Shown: positions 21,163-26,877 of the stretch, in pieces | Layout of the letters: every line of letters begins with the position of its first letter | Numbering within the stretch: the stretch's first letter is position 1 | Assembly (NCBI GenBank): GCA_045536565.1 | Contig: JAZSNU010000003.1 | Location: forward strand, 64,001 to 128,000 | Direction of reading: 5' to 3' | Length of the DNA stretch: 64,000 bases | DNA from: Clostridia bacterium | Lineage (GTDB): Bacteria; Bacillota; Clostridia; TANB77; CAG-465 | The notes under the pieces: model-generated | Database searches by the model: none | Told to the model about the DNA's origin: nothing | What the model saw: the letters and a program-made list of their open reading frames with translations, nothing else | Program-made: the position numbers and the translations under genes

Positions 21163-21163
21163 C

Positions 21164-21203
21164 CCAAATAGAAACTACCCGTTAATGGGTAGTTTCTATT
21201 TGG
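21164..21203 (+). terminator. Long hairpin terminator after hpf
   Basis: CCAAATAGAAACTACCC / GGGTAGTTTCTATTTGG perfect stem. Confidence 0.8.
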
Positions 21204-21305
21204 TAAGAGTATAGAAAAAAAGATAAATTAATGGTAAAAAATAGTATATAATAGAAGGGAGAAAATGCTAAATACAAATAATATCTATTTAGCCATATAA
21301 ATAAT

Positions 21306-21900
21306 ATGAAAGTAATTTTAACCTCAACAGGATTCGAAGATATAGAATCATTAGATAAAATAAAGAAAATAGTAGGTACACCGTTTCAAACTATAAAAAT
21401 GTTAGTTATACCATTGGCGCGTAAGTATGAATATAGAAAAGAAAAATACACTAGTGATTATATTAAATTGGGATTTAAAGAAGAGAATGTTTATTTTTTT
21501 GATGATGATAATCCGGATTTATATAGGAACCTAGATATAGATTTAATATATGTATGCGGTGGGAATACTTTTTTGCTTAAAGATTGTCTGGAAAAATCCA
21601 ATTTTGAACCAGACATAATAGAATATGTAAAAAATAGACGGTGTTATATATTTAGGTGCAAGTGCAGGAACACATATTGCAACATCTAGTATTAAACATG
21701 TACAAGCATTTGATGATAATAGTGTAAAAATTTCTGATTATGAAGGACTAAATTTATATAATGGAATAATAATTTGCCATTATAATAAAACTAGAAAACA
21801 AATATATGAAGAATTAAAAGGAAATGGTATGTATAACATAGAAAAACTATCTGATAGTCAAATATTATACAATAACAAAGAAGCTTGGATAAAATTATAG
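21306..21900 (+). pseudogene. Peptidase E / S51 family (class I glutamine amidotransferase-like), split by a +1 frameshift near 21630-21641; pseudogene or recoded gene
   Basis: Frame 0 has IYVCGGNTFLL; +1 frame from 21640 reads GVIYLGASAG (catalytic Ser motif)...IICHY to TAG 21898-21900; fused product about 197 aa. Confidence 0.8.
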
Positions 21901-21933
21901 TATTAAAAAATAGATTATCGTAGTATAGAATAT

Positions 21934-21968
21934 AAAACACGAAGTAAAAAATAATACTTCGTGTTTTT
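21934..21968. terminator. Hairpin terminator (possibly bidirectional) abutting the left direct repeat
   Basis: AAAACACGAAGTA / TACTTCGTGTTTT. Confidence 0.75.
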
Positions 21969-22028
21969 AGTATTTAATATACTATTGATTTAATACAAAC
22001 TCGGGCTTAAATTACATATTGCTTTCAG
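21965..22028. repeat. 64-bp direct repeat copy 1 (att-like; duplicates the SASP gene 3' end and 3' UTR)
   Basis: TTTTAGTATTTAATATACTATTGATTTAATACAAA-N6-CTTAAATTACATATTGCTTTCAG; 59/64 identical to 24048-24111. Confidence 0.9.
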
Positions 22029-22044
22029 TGCACTCTAATATGAA

Positions 22045-22072
22045 TTGACATTTTACATAATTGTGATATAAT
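22045..22072 (+). promoter_or_regulatory. Consensus sigma-A promoter of the radical SAM operon
   Basis: TTGACA-16 nt-TATAAT with extended -10 TG. Confidence 0.75.
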
Positions 22073-22123
22073 ATTCGAAAAAATATTAGGCTATAATATA
22101 ACTATATTAAAGGAGTGATTATA

Positions 22124-23125
22124 TTGATTAAGACAGTATGGCTTACTTTAAATCGGAAGTGTAATTTACAATGTCAATGGTGTTATTCAAAATATTCTAA
22201 TAAAAATGAAAACATGAATTTTGAGGAAGTTAAGAAACAAATTATAAGACTAGAAAGGCAAGGTATTAAAAAAATTATATTAATAGGAGGAGAACCGTTA
22301 TTATATAAAAATATAATTGAATTAGTCGCGTTTATTAACGGTTTAGGAATAAATCAATCAGTAACAACTAATGGTATTCTTTTAAAGGATTATGATTTTT
22401 GCAAAAAACTGGTTTCTAGTGGTATTAAAAATTTTAATATGTCATTAAAAGGTAATAATGAAGATCAATACACAAAATATACAAATCGTAAAAATGGATT
22501 ATCAGAATTTCTAAGAGGATATAATAATTTAAAAAACTTGGGAATTAAACCAGTAGTTTCGTATGTTATAGTTGACGATAATAAAGAAAATTTTGATAAT
22601 CTTATAGATATGCTCATAGAAAATAACATATATGATGTGTGTTTTCAGTTTGTAAAACCAGCATTGACATTAGAAGAAAAACAAGATAAGCAAGAATTAG
22701 ACAGAATGGGTATGTTTTGCGAATACATATTTACAAAATTAAGAAAGACTGCCATTGATTTTTCTTTTGAAATCTCATTTCCTCTTTGTTTGATAAAGAA
22801 AGAAGTTCTTGAACAAATGATGAAAGAGAAGTGTATTTCAACATGTTGCCATATACAAAAAGGAACAGGGCTGATATTTGATACAAATTTTAATATACTT
22901 CCTTGCAATCATTTTGCAAATTATCCTTTTAGTATAGAAAAAAATGAAATTTTACAAAGTAATATTGCAGATATATTTTCTAATAACAAAGAAATAATAG
23001 AGTTTAGAAAAAAAGTAAGCTGTTATCCAAGTTTAAAATGTAAGTCGTGTAGTCTTTGGGATTATTGTGGAGGAGGATGCTTTACTAGATGGCTTTATGA
23101 TGATCCTGATGATTATATAAAATAA
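22124..23125 (+). CDS. Radical SAM/SPASM peptide maturase without an RRE domain
   Basis: CNLQCQWC (CX3CX2C), GGEP, TTNG; SPASM CC...LPC...CKSCSLWDYCGGGC; TTG start 8 nt after AAGGAG. Confidence 0.9.
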   Translation: MIKTVWLTLNRKCNLQCQWCYSKYSNKNENMNFEEVKKQIIRLERQGIKKIILIGGEPLLYKNIIELVAFINGLGINQSVTTNGILLKDYDFCKKLVSSGIKNFNMSLKGNNEDQYTKYTNRKNGLSEFLRGYNNLKNLGIKPVVSYVIVDDNKENFDNLIDMLIENNIYDVCFQFVKPALTLEEKQDKQELDRMGMFCEYIFTKLRKTAIDFSFEISFPLCLIKKEVLEQMMKEKCISTCCHIQKGTGLIFDTNFNILPCNHFANYPFSIEKNEILQSNIADIFSNNKEIIEFRKKVSCYPSLKCKSCSLWDYCGGGCFTRWLYDDPDDYIK

Positions 23126-23144
23126 AAGAAAGGAGAGCGTCGTT

Positions 23145-23276
23145 ATGTTGAAAGAATTGTTAGATATGTACAAGGGTACTAATCAATCAGCGCCTAGTGC
23201 TAATGGTTTGAGACCAGAAAATTCAACTATGTTAGATTGTAACTGTGTAGATAGCGATTGCGCAATTTCTGATTAG
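23145..23276 (+). CDS. Putative RiPP (ranthipeptide) precursor, 43 aa: MLKELLDMYKGTNQSAPSANGLRPENSTMLDCNCVDSDCAISD
   Basis: Manual translation; SD AAAGGAG; starts 19 nt after the rSAM stop; three CX3D motifs; followed by a terminator. Confidence 0.8.
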   Translation: MLKELLDMYKGTNQSAPSANGLRPENSTMLDCNCVDSDCAISD

Positions 23277-23280
23277 GATC

Positions 23281-23310
23281 AAAAGAGGGTAGATATTTCT
23301 ACTCTCTTTT
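23281..23310 (+). terminator. Terminator closing the rSAM-precursor operon
   Basis: AAAAGAGGGTAGA / TCTACTCTCTTTT hairpin. Confidence 0.75.
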
Positions 23311-23337
23311 GATATAATAATCGTGAAGGTGAATTTT

Positions 23338-24016
23338 ATGTATATGAATGATAAAAATATTAGTATAACAAAAATCGATGACCAAGAATTTGTATTAAAA
23401 GTATTAGATAAAATAGAAAAAGTAACAAAAAAAATAAATCAATATGCAGGTATACCAAATATAAGAGAAATAAAAATAAATATTTATACGGATAGAAAAA
23501 AATTTATATCTGATATATCAAAATTTTATAGAGAAAATTCAGTTCCGGAATATTGCAAGGGTACTATACAAGAAGGGGAAATATATTACTTTTTAGATCA
23601 AAATTATGATGAAAGAAAACCTTTATATGTTTGCCAAATAGTTCATGAGTACATACATATATTATATAATGAATATATAAAAAAACGGAGAAAGATTAGA
23701 TTGGTTAGATGAGGGATTCTCAATATATTTTTCTGGTGAAAAAGATGGTTTAACACAAGATAAGATTAAAAATATTATTAACACTATTATTAATAAAGAA
23801 GATATAAATATTGAAAATATATCACATGATAAGCAATTTGTGATTCCAGGAAAATACAATGGCTATGAAATATCATATTTAATTGTAAAATATATATTTG
23901 AAAATATGAATAAAGCTGAAATTCATAAAATAATTAAAGATACTTTTTATACAAAAAGTATAGAAAAAGAATTATATGAAAAAACAGTGAAATATTATTA
24001 TAATCTGTATAATTAA
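23338..24016 (+). pseudogene. Gluzincin (peptidase MA-like) zinc metalloprotease, split by a +1 frameshift near 23680-23688; pseudogene or recoded gene
   Basis: Frame 0 has VHEYIH (HExxH); +1 frame from 23687 reads GERLDWLDEGFSIYFS (third-ligand Glu)...GYEISYLIVKYI to TAA 24014-24016. Confidence 0.78.
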
Positions 24017-24022
24017 TAATAT

Positions 24023-24051
24023 AAAGAGGCGAGTTTAAATTCGCCTCTTTT
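24023..24051. terminator. Bidirectional terminator between the peptidase and the SASP gene
   Basis: AAAGAGGCGA / TCGCCTCTTT stem with A/T tails. Confidence 0.8.
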
Positions 24052-24111
24052 AGTATTTAATATACTATTGATTTAATACAAATTAAAACTTAAATTACAT
24101 ATTGCTTTCAG
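24048..24111. repeat. 64-bp direct repeat copy 2 (overlaps the SASP stop codon)
   Basis: 59/64 identical to 21965-22028. Confidence 0.9.
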
Positions 24112-24286
24112 CTCTTTCTATAAGTTTTTTAACCATTTGACCACCTATAGCTCCCGCTTGTCTAGATGTTAAATCACCATTGTATCCTTCTTTTAAGTTT
24201 ACACCAACTTCAGAAGCTACTTCGTATTTCATTTTTTGTAAAGCAGCTTTAGCGTTTGGGTTAACATATGAATTTCTAGATGCCAT
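24095..24286 (-). CDS. Alpha/beta-type small acid-soluble spore protein
   Basis: ALQKMKYEVASEVG, GDLTSRQAGAIGGQMVKKLI. Confidence 0.95.
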   Translation of the reverse strand: MASRNSYVNPNAKAALQKMKYEVASEVGVNLKEGYNGDLTSRQAGAIGGQMVKKLIERAESNM

Positions 24287-24436
24287 TATAATTCACCTCC
24301 TGTTTTTGTTAATTATAAAACAAATAAGTTTTACAATATTAATGTGTGAAAAAATAAGTAATTTAATACTGGAAATAAATAGTAAATAATATTTCAAATA
24401 TTTTTTAAAAATAAAGGTATAATAATTAATAAAAAA

Positions 24437-24466
24437 TTGATTTTTTATGTAAAGTATGCTATAATA
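24437..24466 (+). promoter_or_regulatory. Sigma-A-type promoter, copy 1 of a 30-bp direct repeat
   Basis: TTGATT-17 nt-TATAAT with extended TG; 29/30 identical to 26913-26942. Confidence 0.7.
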
Positions 24467-24501
24467 TACTTATCTATTGCGTTATGTGGAGGTAATAATA
24501 G

Positions 24502-26877
24502 ATGAAAAAATATATAAATAAAATAGTATCAATTTTTTTATTAATAAGTTTAGTATTTTCTAATTTGCCATTAGGAGCAATATTAGCATATGTAAGACCA
24601 TCTATAGCTATAAGTTCACCAAGTAAATCATCTGTAAATAACGGTGATTCGGTTTCATATACAGTTACATATAGCGATGCTGATTATATAAACTTATCAT
24701 CTTCATATGTAACGCTAAACGGATTTAACGCAAATATTTATGTATCAGGTAATGGTGATAGTAGAACTATAACACTATCAAATATACAAGGATCAGCAGG
24801 TAGAAAAAGTATTAGTATACAATATGGATCAGCTGAAAATGAAAACGGATATACTCCAACGACTCCAAATTCTGTTGCATTTATATTAAACAATAATACA
24901 GACAGTATAAGACCATCGATATCAGTGAGTTCACCAAGTAAAACCACAGTTAATGTAGGAGATACTGTTTCATATACACTTTCGTTTACAGATAATGTAT
25001 CAGTTGCCAGAGTAAATACATCTGCATCATATATAACTTTAAATGGATTTACAGCAGATATTTATGTATCAAATACATATAATAAAAGTGTAATAACATT
25101 ATCAAATGTACAAGGAGCAGCAGGTAGAAAAAGTATTAGTATAAAAGCTGGAACAGCGTTAGATAGCGCAGGGAATTTAGCAGCAGCCATAGATTCAACA
25201 GTATCATTTAATTTAAATGTAAATAATAATAGTACAAATAATAACAATACAAATTCGGGAACACAAAACATAGACAACACTAGACCTTCTGTTAGTATAA
25301 GTTCGCCAAGTGCAAATAAAGTATATAAAGGTTCTTCATTAACATATACAGTAAGTTTTGCAGATAATAAAGGTGTAGATAAGATTAACTTATCAGATGC
25401 ATATATTAATTTAAATGGATTCACAGCTAATGTTAATATAACAGGAAAGGGATTAAATAGGTTAATAACATTATCAAATATACAAGGAGTAGCAGGTAAA
25501 AAAAGTATCAGCATAAAAGCAGGAGCAGCGTTAGATAGCGCAGGGAATAGCAGCTTAGCAACTTCAAATTCAGTATCATTTGAAATAGTAGAAAAACAAG
25601 CAACAAAACCTACTCAAAATAGCAATAAAGTAACAGCAAGTAATAATTCAAATAATATTAATATATCTTCAAATAATAACACAACATTAATTCAATCAAC
25701 AATTGCATCTGTTGTAAAAAGCACACCTAAAATAATAAATACATGCGAGGATAGTGCAGAAGTTTTAGGAGATGTTAATAAAGAGATAAAAACTTTTTCA
25801 ACAAGATTTACATCAGAAAAAAGTTTAACAACTTATGCTCAAGAAAACAATTATGTTGCAAAAAATGAAGAAATAACATATATAGTTGATTATTATAATG
25901 GAAAAGATAAAGATGCAAAAAATGTAAATATAAAATTAGTAATACCATATAATGTAGATGTATTAGAAATAAATGCAGGTGGTAAAATATCATCTCAAAC
26001 TGCATCTCAAACAGTAATTGAATGGGATAAAGGCACTATAAAAAAAGAAGCAAAATGTAGATTATATGTTAAAGTTAAATATTTACAAAATATGTTATTG
26101 GAAAAATCAGATAGAATTTCAGAAGAATTCTATGTAACTGTAAATACTAAACATGATTCTAAAAATGAAAGTACATATTTAAGACAATTATTTATAGACA
26201 ACAATCCAAATAAAACAGCAACAATTAACAAATATTTAACTGCAATTGATAGTACTAATTCAATAAGACCAGATGATAAAATAACAAGAGCAGAACTTGC
26301 TAAATTATTAGTTGACACCGGAATAATACAAGTAAAAAATTCGAATACAGATTACAAAAAATATAAAGATGCAGAAGAAATTCCAGCATATGCGAGAGAT
26401 GCCGTATCAGCATTATATAATACAGGTATAATAGAGGAGTTTTCCGATTCTGAATTTAAACCTAACAATCCAATTGTAAGGGATGAATTCTTTAAGATAG
26501 TTGCAAAAGCAGCAAAGTATGTATCAAACGGTAAATTAGAAACAAACAAACCAACATTTATATATACAGACATTATAGATGATAAGGATAAGGCAATATG
26601 TTCAAATAAAGATTATATTATGGAACTTATTAGAATTAATGTTATAAAGAAACAAGATGTAAGACCAGATGAATACACATTAAGGAAAGAAGCAGTAGAG
26701 ATAATAAATGCTTTAACATTTAGAGGACCTTATGTACATCAAATGGAAAGTAATGTATTAAAGTTTGTGGATATTGATGAAAACAACTCATATTTCTATG
26801 ATATAGTAGGCGCTTCAAATACATATGTATATAGTTATACAGATACATTATGGCAGAAAATAACAAGTGTAAAATAA
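24502..26877 (+). CDS. Secreted surface protein: three tandem Ig-like repeats, DUF11-like domain and C-terminal SLH domains
   Basis: Signal peptide; 3x RPSxSISSPS...YTVxxxD...YITLNGFTA...ITLSNIQGxAGRKSISI; SLH motifs RPDDKITRAE, FKPNNPIVRDE. Confidence 0.8.
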   Translation: MKKYINKIVSIFLLISLVFSNLPLGAILAYVRPSIAISSPSKSSVNNGDSVSYTVTYSDADYINLSSSYVTLNGFNANIYVSGNGDSRTITLSNIQGSAGRKSISIQYGSAENENGYTPTTPNSVAFILNNNTDSIRPSISVSSPSKTTVNVGDTVSYTLSFTDNVSVARVNTSASYITLNGFTADIYVSNTYNKSVITLSNVQGAAGRKSISIKAGTALDSAGNLAAAIDSTVSFNLNVNNNSTNNNNTNSGTQNIDNTRPSVSISSPSANKVYKGSSLTYTVSFADNKGVDKINLSDAYINLNGFTANVNITGKGLNRLITLSNIQGVAGKKSISIKAGAALDSAGNSSLATSNSVSFEIVEKQATKPTQNSNKVTASNNSNNINISSNNNTTLIQSTIASVVKSTPKIINTCEDSAEVLGDVNKEIKTFSTRFTSEKSLTTYAQENNYVAKNEEITYIVDYYNGKDKDAKNVNIKLVIPYNVDVLEINAGGKISSQTASQTVIEWDKGTIKKEAKCRLYVKVKYLQNMLLEKSDRISEEFYVTVNTKHDSKNESTYLRQLFIDNNPNKTATINKYLTAIDSTNSIRPDDKITRAELAKLLVDTGIIQVKNSNTDYKKYKDAEEIPAYARDAVSALYNTGIIEEFSDSEFKPNNPIVRDEFFKIVAKAAKYVSNGKLETNKPTFIYTDIIDDKDKAICSNKDYIMELIRINVIKKQDVRPDEYTLRKEAVEIINALTFRGPYVHQMESNVLKFVDIDENNSYFYDIVGASNTYVYSYTDTLWQKITSVK

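Follow-up and report, generated by a model that had tools for sequence, protein, structure and literature searches.

The locus described here raises the question of whether a short radical S-adenosylmethionine (SAM) enzyme and the open reading frame (ORF) of 43 amino acids (aa) behind it act as enzyme and substrate in the making of a ribosomally synthesised, post-translationally modified peptide (RiPP), and which chemistry would then be performed on the peptide. Both genes lie in a stretch of 64,000 nucleotides (nt) from a Clostridia bacterium (assembly GCA_045536565.1, contig JAZSNU010000003.1, positions 64,001 to 128,000), which is henceforth called the window and whose own numbering is used for all coordinates. 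The source genome (1.13 Mb in 22 contigs) is rated 100% complete, and the DNA of the window is AT-rich and Bacillota-like. A previous reading of the letters alone, henceforth the original prediction, had proposed a new ranthipeptide system in which thioethers are formed on three CX3D motifs of the peptide. The two genes very probably form an enzyme–substrate pair of RiPP type, as proposed, with the small ORF being conserved beside homologs of the enzyme. Judged from the aligned peptides, however, what recurs throughout the family is a Cys with Asp or Asn beside it, often in the form Asp-Cys-x-Cys, and not CX3D.

The radical SAM/SPASM gene was found at the size claimed for it (Table 1); the ORF as listed begins at a GTG (22115), and the TTG nine positions further on was preferred as the start. 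Pfam Radical_SAM was matched with 98.2 bits (cut-off 29.5), and Fer4_12 was matched as well. In an alignment of 25 family members, the CX3CX2C motif (Cys13, Cys17, and Cys20) is invariant, as are seven C-terminal Cys (222, 242, 261, 306, 309, 315, and 319), the last four of which form a CX2CX5CX3C motif that is followed by no eighth Cys. By these residues, both the radical SAM cluster motif and the auxiliary-cluster Cys of SPASM proteins are present, and the SPASM model of Pfam (PF13186) scored above its cut-off in the homologs P0017 and P0004. The AlphaFold (AF2) model of the enzyme (predicted local distance difference test (pLDDT) 87.9, predicted template modelling score (pTM) 0.88) opens with a core strand at residues 4–8. 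Foldseek returned the streptide maturase SuiB as top match (E-value 4e-16; template modelling (TM) score 0.76 on the query), followed by BlsE, the anaerobic sulfatase maturase anSME, ChlB, CteB, and SkfB, and a profile search against the PDB matched GDGT-MAS, SuiB, SkfB, MoaA, and CteB. The enzyme is thus classified, from its motifs and fold, as a short SPASM radical SAM protein whose family has no curated name.

Homolog loci were collected by a pattern scan (one genome per species) that recovered 192 relatives, from which 80 loci were kept, giving 81 with the window. Small ORFs (25–130 aa) were counted if their last 30 residues held 3 or more Cys together with 4 or more Asp, Glu, or Asn, thresholds that were set by the authors. 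The original prediction had made its fate depend on a conserved Cys/Asp-rich small ORF beside the homologs, and an adjacent same-strand ORF of this kind was present in 66 of the 81 loci, so that the proposal was not refuted on this point. The thresholds were passed by 72 of 353 adjacent small ORFs versus 95 of 4702 non-adjacent ones, some of the latter being second precursors. Among the 15 loci failing the thresholds, five have a one-Cys peptide just upstream of the enzyme (L021, L024, L025, L028, L047), one has a two-Cys peptide upstream (L032), three have Cys-bearing peptides under the thresholds (L045, L048, L081), one has its peptide inside a longer open frame (L012), and five are without a clear peptide (L078, L082, L084, L088, L089). 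With a hidden Markov model (HMM) built from the peptides, 76 of 81 loci yielded a peptide next to the enzyme, a count that is partly circular. Where peptides were placed by coordinates (n = 63), 52 lie downstream and 11 upstream of the enzyme.

In the window, the predicted 43-aa ORF with its Shine-Dalgarno sequence is present and can be divided into a leader (about residues 1–23), a variable linker, and a Cys/Asp core (residues 31–43), in which Cys32, Cys34, and Cys39 each have an Asp at +4, the last of these being the C-terminal residue. The peptide itself had no match in Pfam or in NCBIfam (E-value ≤ 0.1 for NCBIfam), and nine homologous peptides searched against NCBIfam at E-value ≤ 10 yielded two chance-level matches only; membership in SCIFF or another named Cys-rich precursor family of NCBIfam was rejected, since no curated precursor model matches the peptides. 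Many short ORFs occur in AT-rich windows, and the small ORF could in principle be such a chance open frame. The likelihood of this is next to nil, and the idea is already contradicted by the conservation of the ORF in most of the 81 loci, by its Shine-Dalgarno sequence, and by mostly synonymous differences in related contigs. These short contigs stem from four gut or faeces sequencing runs (four studies), span the enzyme and peptide genes in part, and are about 95–97% identical to the window. Six positions differ within the peptide ORF, four of them synonymously (in Leu6, Thr12, and twice in Leu22) and two with replacement (Asp7 to Glu, Pro24 to Ser), and the two contigs spanning the core (23151–23322 and 23139–23320) have no difference in codons 31–43. 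Depths are low, and the differences lend weak support to coding constraint on the ORF. Among the 20 sequencing runs listed as containing the sequence, each with a share of ≤ 0.14, none was an RNA run.

The enzyme gene and the small ORF are each single-copy in the genome, and the family to which they belong is widespread. A word-indexed search gave 364 relatives at E-value ≤ 0.001 among 1915 candidates; the 119 relatives listed (query excluded) are 38–56% identical to the enzyme of the window and mostly 328–363 aa long. An HMMER scan of 1.84 billion representative sequences returned 517 proteins at E-value ≤ 1e-30. Searches within the order of the source organism recovered the enzyme from 7 of 301 genomes (the source genome included) and from none of five genomes of its genus. 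According to the record labels, the homolog loci belong to Clostridia, Lachnospiraceae, gut metagenome-assembled genomes of Bacilli/Mollicutes type, Erysipelotrichaceae, and a few Bacteroidales, and further to Patescibacteria/Saccharibacteria and to Woese- and Pacearchaeota. Sequence and comparison show that the enzyme and its leader–core peptide stay together across phyla and form a mobile accessory unit. In six proteins of 940–1318 aa (P0165, P0173, P0175, P0231, P0233, P0250), the enzyme profile is matched three or four times in separate segments, which may represent radical SAM domains fused in tandem.

When 32 peptides were aligned, Met1 and Cys32 were invariant and Gly21 and Cys34 nearly so, and conservation was lacking at Cys39 and Asp43. 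In the leader, an aromatic-x-Gly-Thr pattern and often Ala-Pro precede a Gly that is followed by an aliphatic and in most cases a basic residue; the linker between leader and core differs in length. Around the 397 Cys of 74 distinct cores, Asp was found at −1 in 49%, at −3 in 31%, and at +4 in 26% of cases (background 15–18%), and another Cys at ±2 in about 36%. In the closer half of the relatives, Asp at −1 rises to 64%, with Asn accounting for another 19%. Counted by core, Asp-Cys occurs in 68 and Cys-x3-Asp in 51 of the 74. Cores of distant members are runs of alternating Cys-x-Cys. A subfamily associated with GNAT acetyltransferases has peptides ending in Asn-Tyr-Asp-Cys-Asp-Pro, whose only Cys is two residues short of the C-terminus. 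In six loci (L021, L023, L024, L025, L028, L047) the gene order is GNAT acetyltransferase, single-Cys precursor of 34–40 aa, and enzyme, and in six of the 120 listed enzymes (506–521 aa; P0057, P0075, P0076, P0078, P0102, P0112) a GNAT domain is fused to the N-terminus; this association suggests acetylation as a second modification. On one contig of genome G019 (C5; L008, L010, L029), two enzyme–peptide pairs stand in tandem with differing cores, one a run of Cys-x-x-Tyr-Cys-like repeats with Glu/Asp and the other an Asp/Asn-Cys run, and a 40-aa Cys-rich ORF lies further downstream. In one genus, a flavodoxin-like ORF of 181 aa, named from its N-terminal sequence, directly follows the precursor (L005:2881–3426, also L031) and could encode a reductant for the enzyme.

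In the proposed mechanism, SAM-derived radical chemistry would modify the conserved Asp-Cys-x-Cys core. We infer that hydrogen abstraction takes place at a residue next to the invariant Cys, the sulfur of which is then joined to the carbon concerned; the most likely product would be a ranthipeptide-like link from the Cys sulfur to a side-chain carbon of the neighbouring Asp or Asn. A thioether is proposed because Cys is the only invariant residue of the core and its neighbours are enriched in Asp and Asn, and the chances that the product contains a thioether of any kind are regarded as evenly balanced. Speculating from the motif alone, auxiliary cluster II, with no fourth Cys after CX2CX5CX3C, might offer a site for the substrate thiol.

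The specific form of this chemistry in the original prediction was a tricycle like that of freyrasin, with thioethers from the sulfur of Cys32, Cys34, and Cys39 to the beta-carbon of Asp36, Asp38, and Asp43, respectively. The window peptide has all three spacings, and in the closer relatives Asp at +4 is moderately enriched (38% vs 18% background). According to two studies, the freyrasin enzyme PapB forms thioethers between Cys and an Asp or Glu placed C-terminal to it, tolerates spacings of 0–6 residues, makes nested as well as in-line CX3D links, and can use the C-terminal residue (PMC9413430, PMC12373016). CX3D nevertheless does not hold as a conserved unit: Asp at −1 is a stronger signal than Asp at +4, two of the residues needed for the third ring (Cys39 and Asp43) vary, the nearest locus (L011) has Ser and Asn in place of Asp36 and Asp38, and the single-Cys subfamily cannot form CX3D at all, its Cys lying too close to the C-terminus. 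The enzyme was also not assigned to the PapB family (NF047865; 64.9 bits, cut-off 340), although among the listed models of thioether-forming peptide maturases this one gave the best full-length alignment (window enzyme residues 2–320). A PapB-like tricycle is accordingly held to be decidedly unlikely.

The fold of the enzyme leaves room for other radical SAM reactions on the Cys/Asp core, i.e., a sactionine, an anSME-like Cys oxidation, an epimerisation, or a C–C link. It is about equally close to the C–C-linking SuiB, the Cys/Ser-oxidising anSME, the S-to-C-alpha enzymes CteB and SkfB, and the cyclophane-forming ChlB, none of the family models points to a particular chemistry, and the alternating Cys-x-Cys runs of distant cores would fit such reactions. 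That Cys is the sole invariant core residue and that the Asp/Asn enrichment fits acidic or amide acceptors speaks against them, and membership of the enzyme among the anaerobic sulfatase maturases (TIGR03942) was rejected at a full-length score of 60.1 bits (cut-off 349). Chemistry of this kind is considered unlikely, if less so than the PapB-like tricycle.

A ranthipeptide-like thioether system can be compared with several known ones. Like PapB with its precursor PapA, the present pair combines a radical SAM/SPASM enzyme with a Cys/Asp-rich core, and the window peptide has CX3D spacings; it differs in that the family conserves Asp-Cys and Cys-x-Cys and that no RiPP recognition element (RRE) was detected. 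The freyrasin gene cluster includes a transporter and a protease. SuiB shares the SPASM peptide-maturase fold and is also matched by sequence profile (5v1q, E-value 2.3e-17, query residues 13–332), but it is about 440 aa long with an extra N-terminal domain (TM score on the target about 0.6), is 19–20% identical, and makes a Lys–Trp C–C link. CteB of the SCIFF system is likewise a SPASM enzyme with a short Cys-rich precursor and a fold match (5why, E-value 3.3e-11); it is 453 aa long, its sequence match is confined to the N-terminal core (query residues 4–115), and no NCBIfam model, SCIFF included, matched the peptides. The models for GeoRSP (TIGR04303) and ScmF (TIGR04251) have similar lengths (325 and 353) and aligned in full length with 86.3 and 80.5 bits, far below their cut-offs of 400; their NCBIfam names (GeoRSP, SynChlorMet) denote peptide-associated cassettes, and to our knowledge both precursors and chemistry are uncharacterised. 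In the NxxcB/NxxC and QhpD/QhpC systems, thioethers run from Cys to the beta- or gamma-carbon of an Asn, Asp, or Glu residue. Peptides of the single-Cys subfamily close with an Asn-x-x-Cys arrangement, and the window peptide has two Asp-x-x-Cys; neither NxxcB nor QhpD is among the best 25 NCBIfam matches. PMC11851443 refers to NxxcB as a known family. Of the features that mark ranthipeptide systems, an adjacent Cys-containing leader–core precursor is present, and the RRE, usual though not strictly defining for them, was not found. Taken by sequence, the pair would work like a ranthipeptide or SCIFF-type system while standing outside the PapB, SCIFF, anSME, and NirJ/AhbD families.

The lack of an N-terminal RRE stated in the original prediction agrees with the AlphaFold model, which starts directly with the core strand. 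A PqqD-like domain (PF05402) was matched nowhere in the whole genome, the same search being positive in 4 of 14 control genomes, and none of the 81 loci has a conserved small neighbour gene that could encode a discrete RRE, with the reservation that PF05402 may miss divergent RREs. In PMC9413430, the PapB leader is assumed to be RRE-bound. For the present pair, it is predicted that the RRE-less enzyme binds the conserved leader via its own C-terminal SPASM region. When both alignments were supplied, the predicted complex of enzyme and peptide scored 0.83 in three runs (0.83–0.84), the best of three controls reaching 0.02; 58 of 80 solved complexes and 2 of 110 mismatched pairs attained that mark. 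The pLDDT of the partner was at least 63, and contacts agreed between runs to at least 57%. Confident contacts connect peptide residues 1–2, 4–6, and 8–28 with enzyme residues 181–185, 212–217, 233–246, 260–270, and 290–328, and peptide residues 1–28 contact enzyme residues 294–328, including Trp323, invariant in the aligned family members, and Tyr301, almost so. The tightest predicted pairs are Trp323/Leu324 with residues 8–10, Lys300/Tyr301 with 11–16, and Asp313/Tyr314 with 19–22 of the peptide. The core (residues 29–43) was placed without confidence, and the model gives nothing on the reacting residues. The prediction supports, and does not prove, docking of the leader on the SPASM/C-terminal region without an RRE, and the RRE-independent recognition suggested originally draws its backing from this model. 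RRE-less SPASM enzymes exist (anSME and, by their models, GeoRSP and ScmF), so the absence of an RRE is by itself not new.

The genomic surroundings identify the genes as accessory. In five of five congeners, no more than about 100 nt separate hpf from a convergent gene for a small acid-soluble spore protein (SASP), and these empty sites contain no match to the enzyme, the peptidase described below, or a Peptidase_S51 fragment. In the window, promoter, enzyme, peptide, peptidase, and terminator all lie between two copies of a direct repeat (Table 1), the left copy of which duplicates the last codons of the SASP gene and the sequence just beyond; at the empty sites the repeat occurs once in G057 and only in part in G130. 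As the terminator-like hairpin at the end of the cassette directly follows hpf in the congeners, the insertion would have taken place between hpf and its original terminator. The comparison thus marks about 2.9 kb (21163–24094) as a genome-specific insertion and the cassette as accessory. The two-gene operon of the original prediction was therefore too small, for a third, frameshifted gene follows and the whole set lies inside the insertion; no transporter is adjacent, as had been stated, and the island encodes no exporter. Also inside the insertion is a 127-aa ORF (21306–21689) whose match to Peptidase_S51 (34 bits) extends over only about the first 120 of the 206 model positions; PepE is matched weakly, and the ORF looks truncated. 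Beyond the SASP gene, a secreted protein of 791 aa with three internal repeats of about 110 aa is encoded at 24502–26877; it also stands beside the SASP gene in the congeners (49–64% identity).

Table 1. Positions of the cassette genes, their expression signals, and the flanking elements in the window
Feature	Position	Strand	Remarks
Left copy of 73-nt direct repeat	21965..22037	.	family D1, 88% identity, 2083-nt spacing
Sigma-70-type promoter	22045..22072	+	TTGACA, 16-nt spacer, TATAAT, extended -10 TG; 12/12 hexamer matches
Radical SAM/SPASM enzyme gene	22124..23125	+	333 aa, TTG start ~10 nt after GGAG
43-aa precursor peptide ORF	23145..23276	+	ATG start, 19 nt after enzyme stop, Shine-Dalgarno AAAGGAGAG upstream
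16-bp hairpin 3' of precursor gene	23278..23313	+	fold -22.7 kcal/mol, z = -7.75
Weaker promoter-like site before peptidase gene	23290..23318	+	10/12 matches, with TG
MA-type (gluzincin-like) metallopeptidase gene, split	23338..24016	+	tblastn of intact L011/L012 homologs, two frames
Intrinsic-terminator-like hairpin closing cassette	24023..24050	+	called by scan; same hairpin follows hpf in congeners
Right copy of 73-nt direct repeat	24048..24120	.	overlaps 3' end of SASP gene
Small acid-soluble spore protein (SASP) gene, 63 aa	24095..24286	-	flanks island

The promoter claimed originally is present and was the top-scoring of 32 promoter-like sites between 21600 and 24600, a number that is not unusual for this region (shuffle mean 27.6). 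Regarding the claimed terminator behind the precursor gene, the strong hairpin was recovered (0 of 200 shuffles folded equally well), whereas the pattern-based terminator scan did not call it. Its stem contains part of its own U-run, and it is possibly a partial terminator or an RNA-stabilising element. Two hairpins, at 21934–21967 and at the end of the cassette, are of bidirectional terminator-like form. A search of 21600–24600 against Rfam returned three chance-level matches only (E-values 0.38–0.63, far under the gathering scores), and the region thus contains no riboswitch or known RNA.

The third gene was recognised by tblastn with the intact homologs of L011 and L012 (E-values 2e-24 and 4e-25). 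Its first frame (23338–23712) carries HExxH and its second (23693–24016) Trp-Leu-Asp-Glu-Gly and the C-terminal half. Intact homologs of 232–254 aa stand after the precursor in L011 and L012 and upstream in L042; in L011 and L012, HExxH is followed by Trp-Leu-Asp-Glu-Gly, in line with the clan MA pattern of a Glu ligand about 18–19 residues later, and the latter segment would supply the third zinc ligand. A weak match to M9 was also obtained with Pfam. This MA-type metallopeptidase is the likely leader peptidase, which would remove the leader after modification of the core. In 17 distant loci from Patescibacteria and DPANN (within L052–L087, e.g., L052:5214–5786 and L057:5022–5675; 19 at weaker HMM E-values), the enzyme or the peptide is followed by an HExxH protein of another kind, about 200 aa long. 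Invariant in it are Asp11, His111, Glu112, His115, Lys140, Glu141, Gly158, and Arg166, it matched no Pfam or NCBIfam family, and kinship to the peptidase of the window was not demonstrable (hhalign probability 9.7%, 18 columns). It could be a peptidase or a hydroxylase of the alpha-ketoglutarate (alpha-KG)-HExxH type, a type cited in PMC12912966.

The pair might alternatively have nothing to do with RiPPs, with the peptide binding a metal or a cluster in unmodified form or the enzyme acting on a small molecule beside an incidental ORF. Cys-x-Cys with Asp resembles metal-binding motifs, and the top NCBIfam scores were those of the NirJ2, MoaA, and AhbD families. All of these, however, are far below their cut-offs, and membership among the NirJ2/AhbD heme enzymes was rejected (95.9 and 75 bits in full length, cut-off 500 for each). 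The 2.9-kb island is without heme or cofactor genes, the peptide co-occurs with the enzyme across phyla and on either side of it, and the complex model would dock the conserved leader on conserved enzyme residues. A role outside RiPP biosynthesis is therefore very improbable.

The cassette is best explained jointly as a small, horizontally acquired, RiPP-type unit of three genes in which the leader would dock on the SPASM region, the core would receive a thioether, and the peptidase would release it; the chances of the whole being right are put slightly above even. Several observations weigh against it. For the enzyme, Pfam SPASM was unreported at E-value ≤ 0.1 in the window protein, no NCBIfam model reached its cut-off, and the best full-length scores were obtained for the heme-pathway enzyme NirJ2 and the uncharacterised GeoRSP and ScmF, not for PapB. 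The peptide census used author-set thresholds and an HMM from the same peptides, so that 76 of 81 leans to the model, and the complex score is a model confidence from author-made alignments. On the chemical side, Asp before Cys is the commonest arrangement, and PapB-like directionality may not apply. In PMC9413430, a transposed Asp-x3-Cys peptide was not cross-linked by PapB; with Asp mostly preceding Cys in the present family, the direction and the partner of the link may differ from those in freyrasin. The peptidase was found beside the enzyme in only three other loci of this type, Peptidase_MA_2 scored under its cut-off of 32.4 bits in the homologs (28.1, 20.5, and 27.6) and in the second frame of the window (19.5), and a 1-nt frameshift lies near an A7 run (23680–23686) between HExxH and Trp-Leu-Asp-Glu-Gly. 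None of the gut or faeces contigs fits 23680–23712. As assembled, the gene is broken, and maturation of the peptide may here be impaired or reliant on another protease.

No description of this enzyme–peptide family was found in the open-access papers that were searched, although supplementary datasets of surveys may list members. New are the precursor family, the Asp/Asn-flanked Cys unit, the predicted docking of the leader on the SPASM region, and the spread into ultra-small genomes. According to PMC10288494, large surveys of radical SAM RiPPs were filtered on an associated RRE or a neighbouring ABC transporter, and such filters would miss a family that has neither. Going further, the pair could represent, in compact form, a new cross-domain class of RiPPs with about 500 enzyme clusters (50% identity) in gut Bacillota, Patescibacteria, and DPANN archaea, in which the SPASM C-terminal region replaces the RRE and an Asp/Asn-flanked Cys, at minimum a single one, is modified with a geometry or Cys modification outside the freyrasin, NxxC, and SCIFF rules; this is put forward as a tentative and rather doubtful extension. 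With 333 and 43 aa, the pair is a very small one on which RRE-less leader recognition by a SPASM enzyme could be studied, and the one-Cys cores could define the chemistry cleanly. If the links prove to be thioethers of new geometry, the enzyme would be of interest for peptide stapling of the PapB type. That the cassette is kept in ultra-small genomes, i.e., in this 1.13-Mb genome, in Patescibacteria, and in DPANN archaea, hints at a role in cell–cell interaction.

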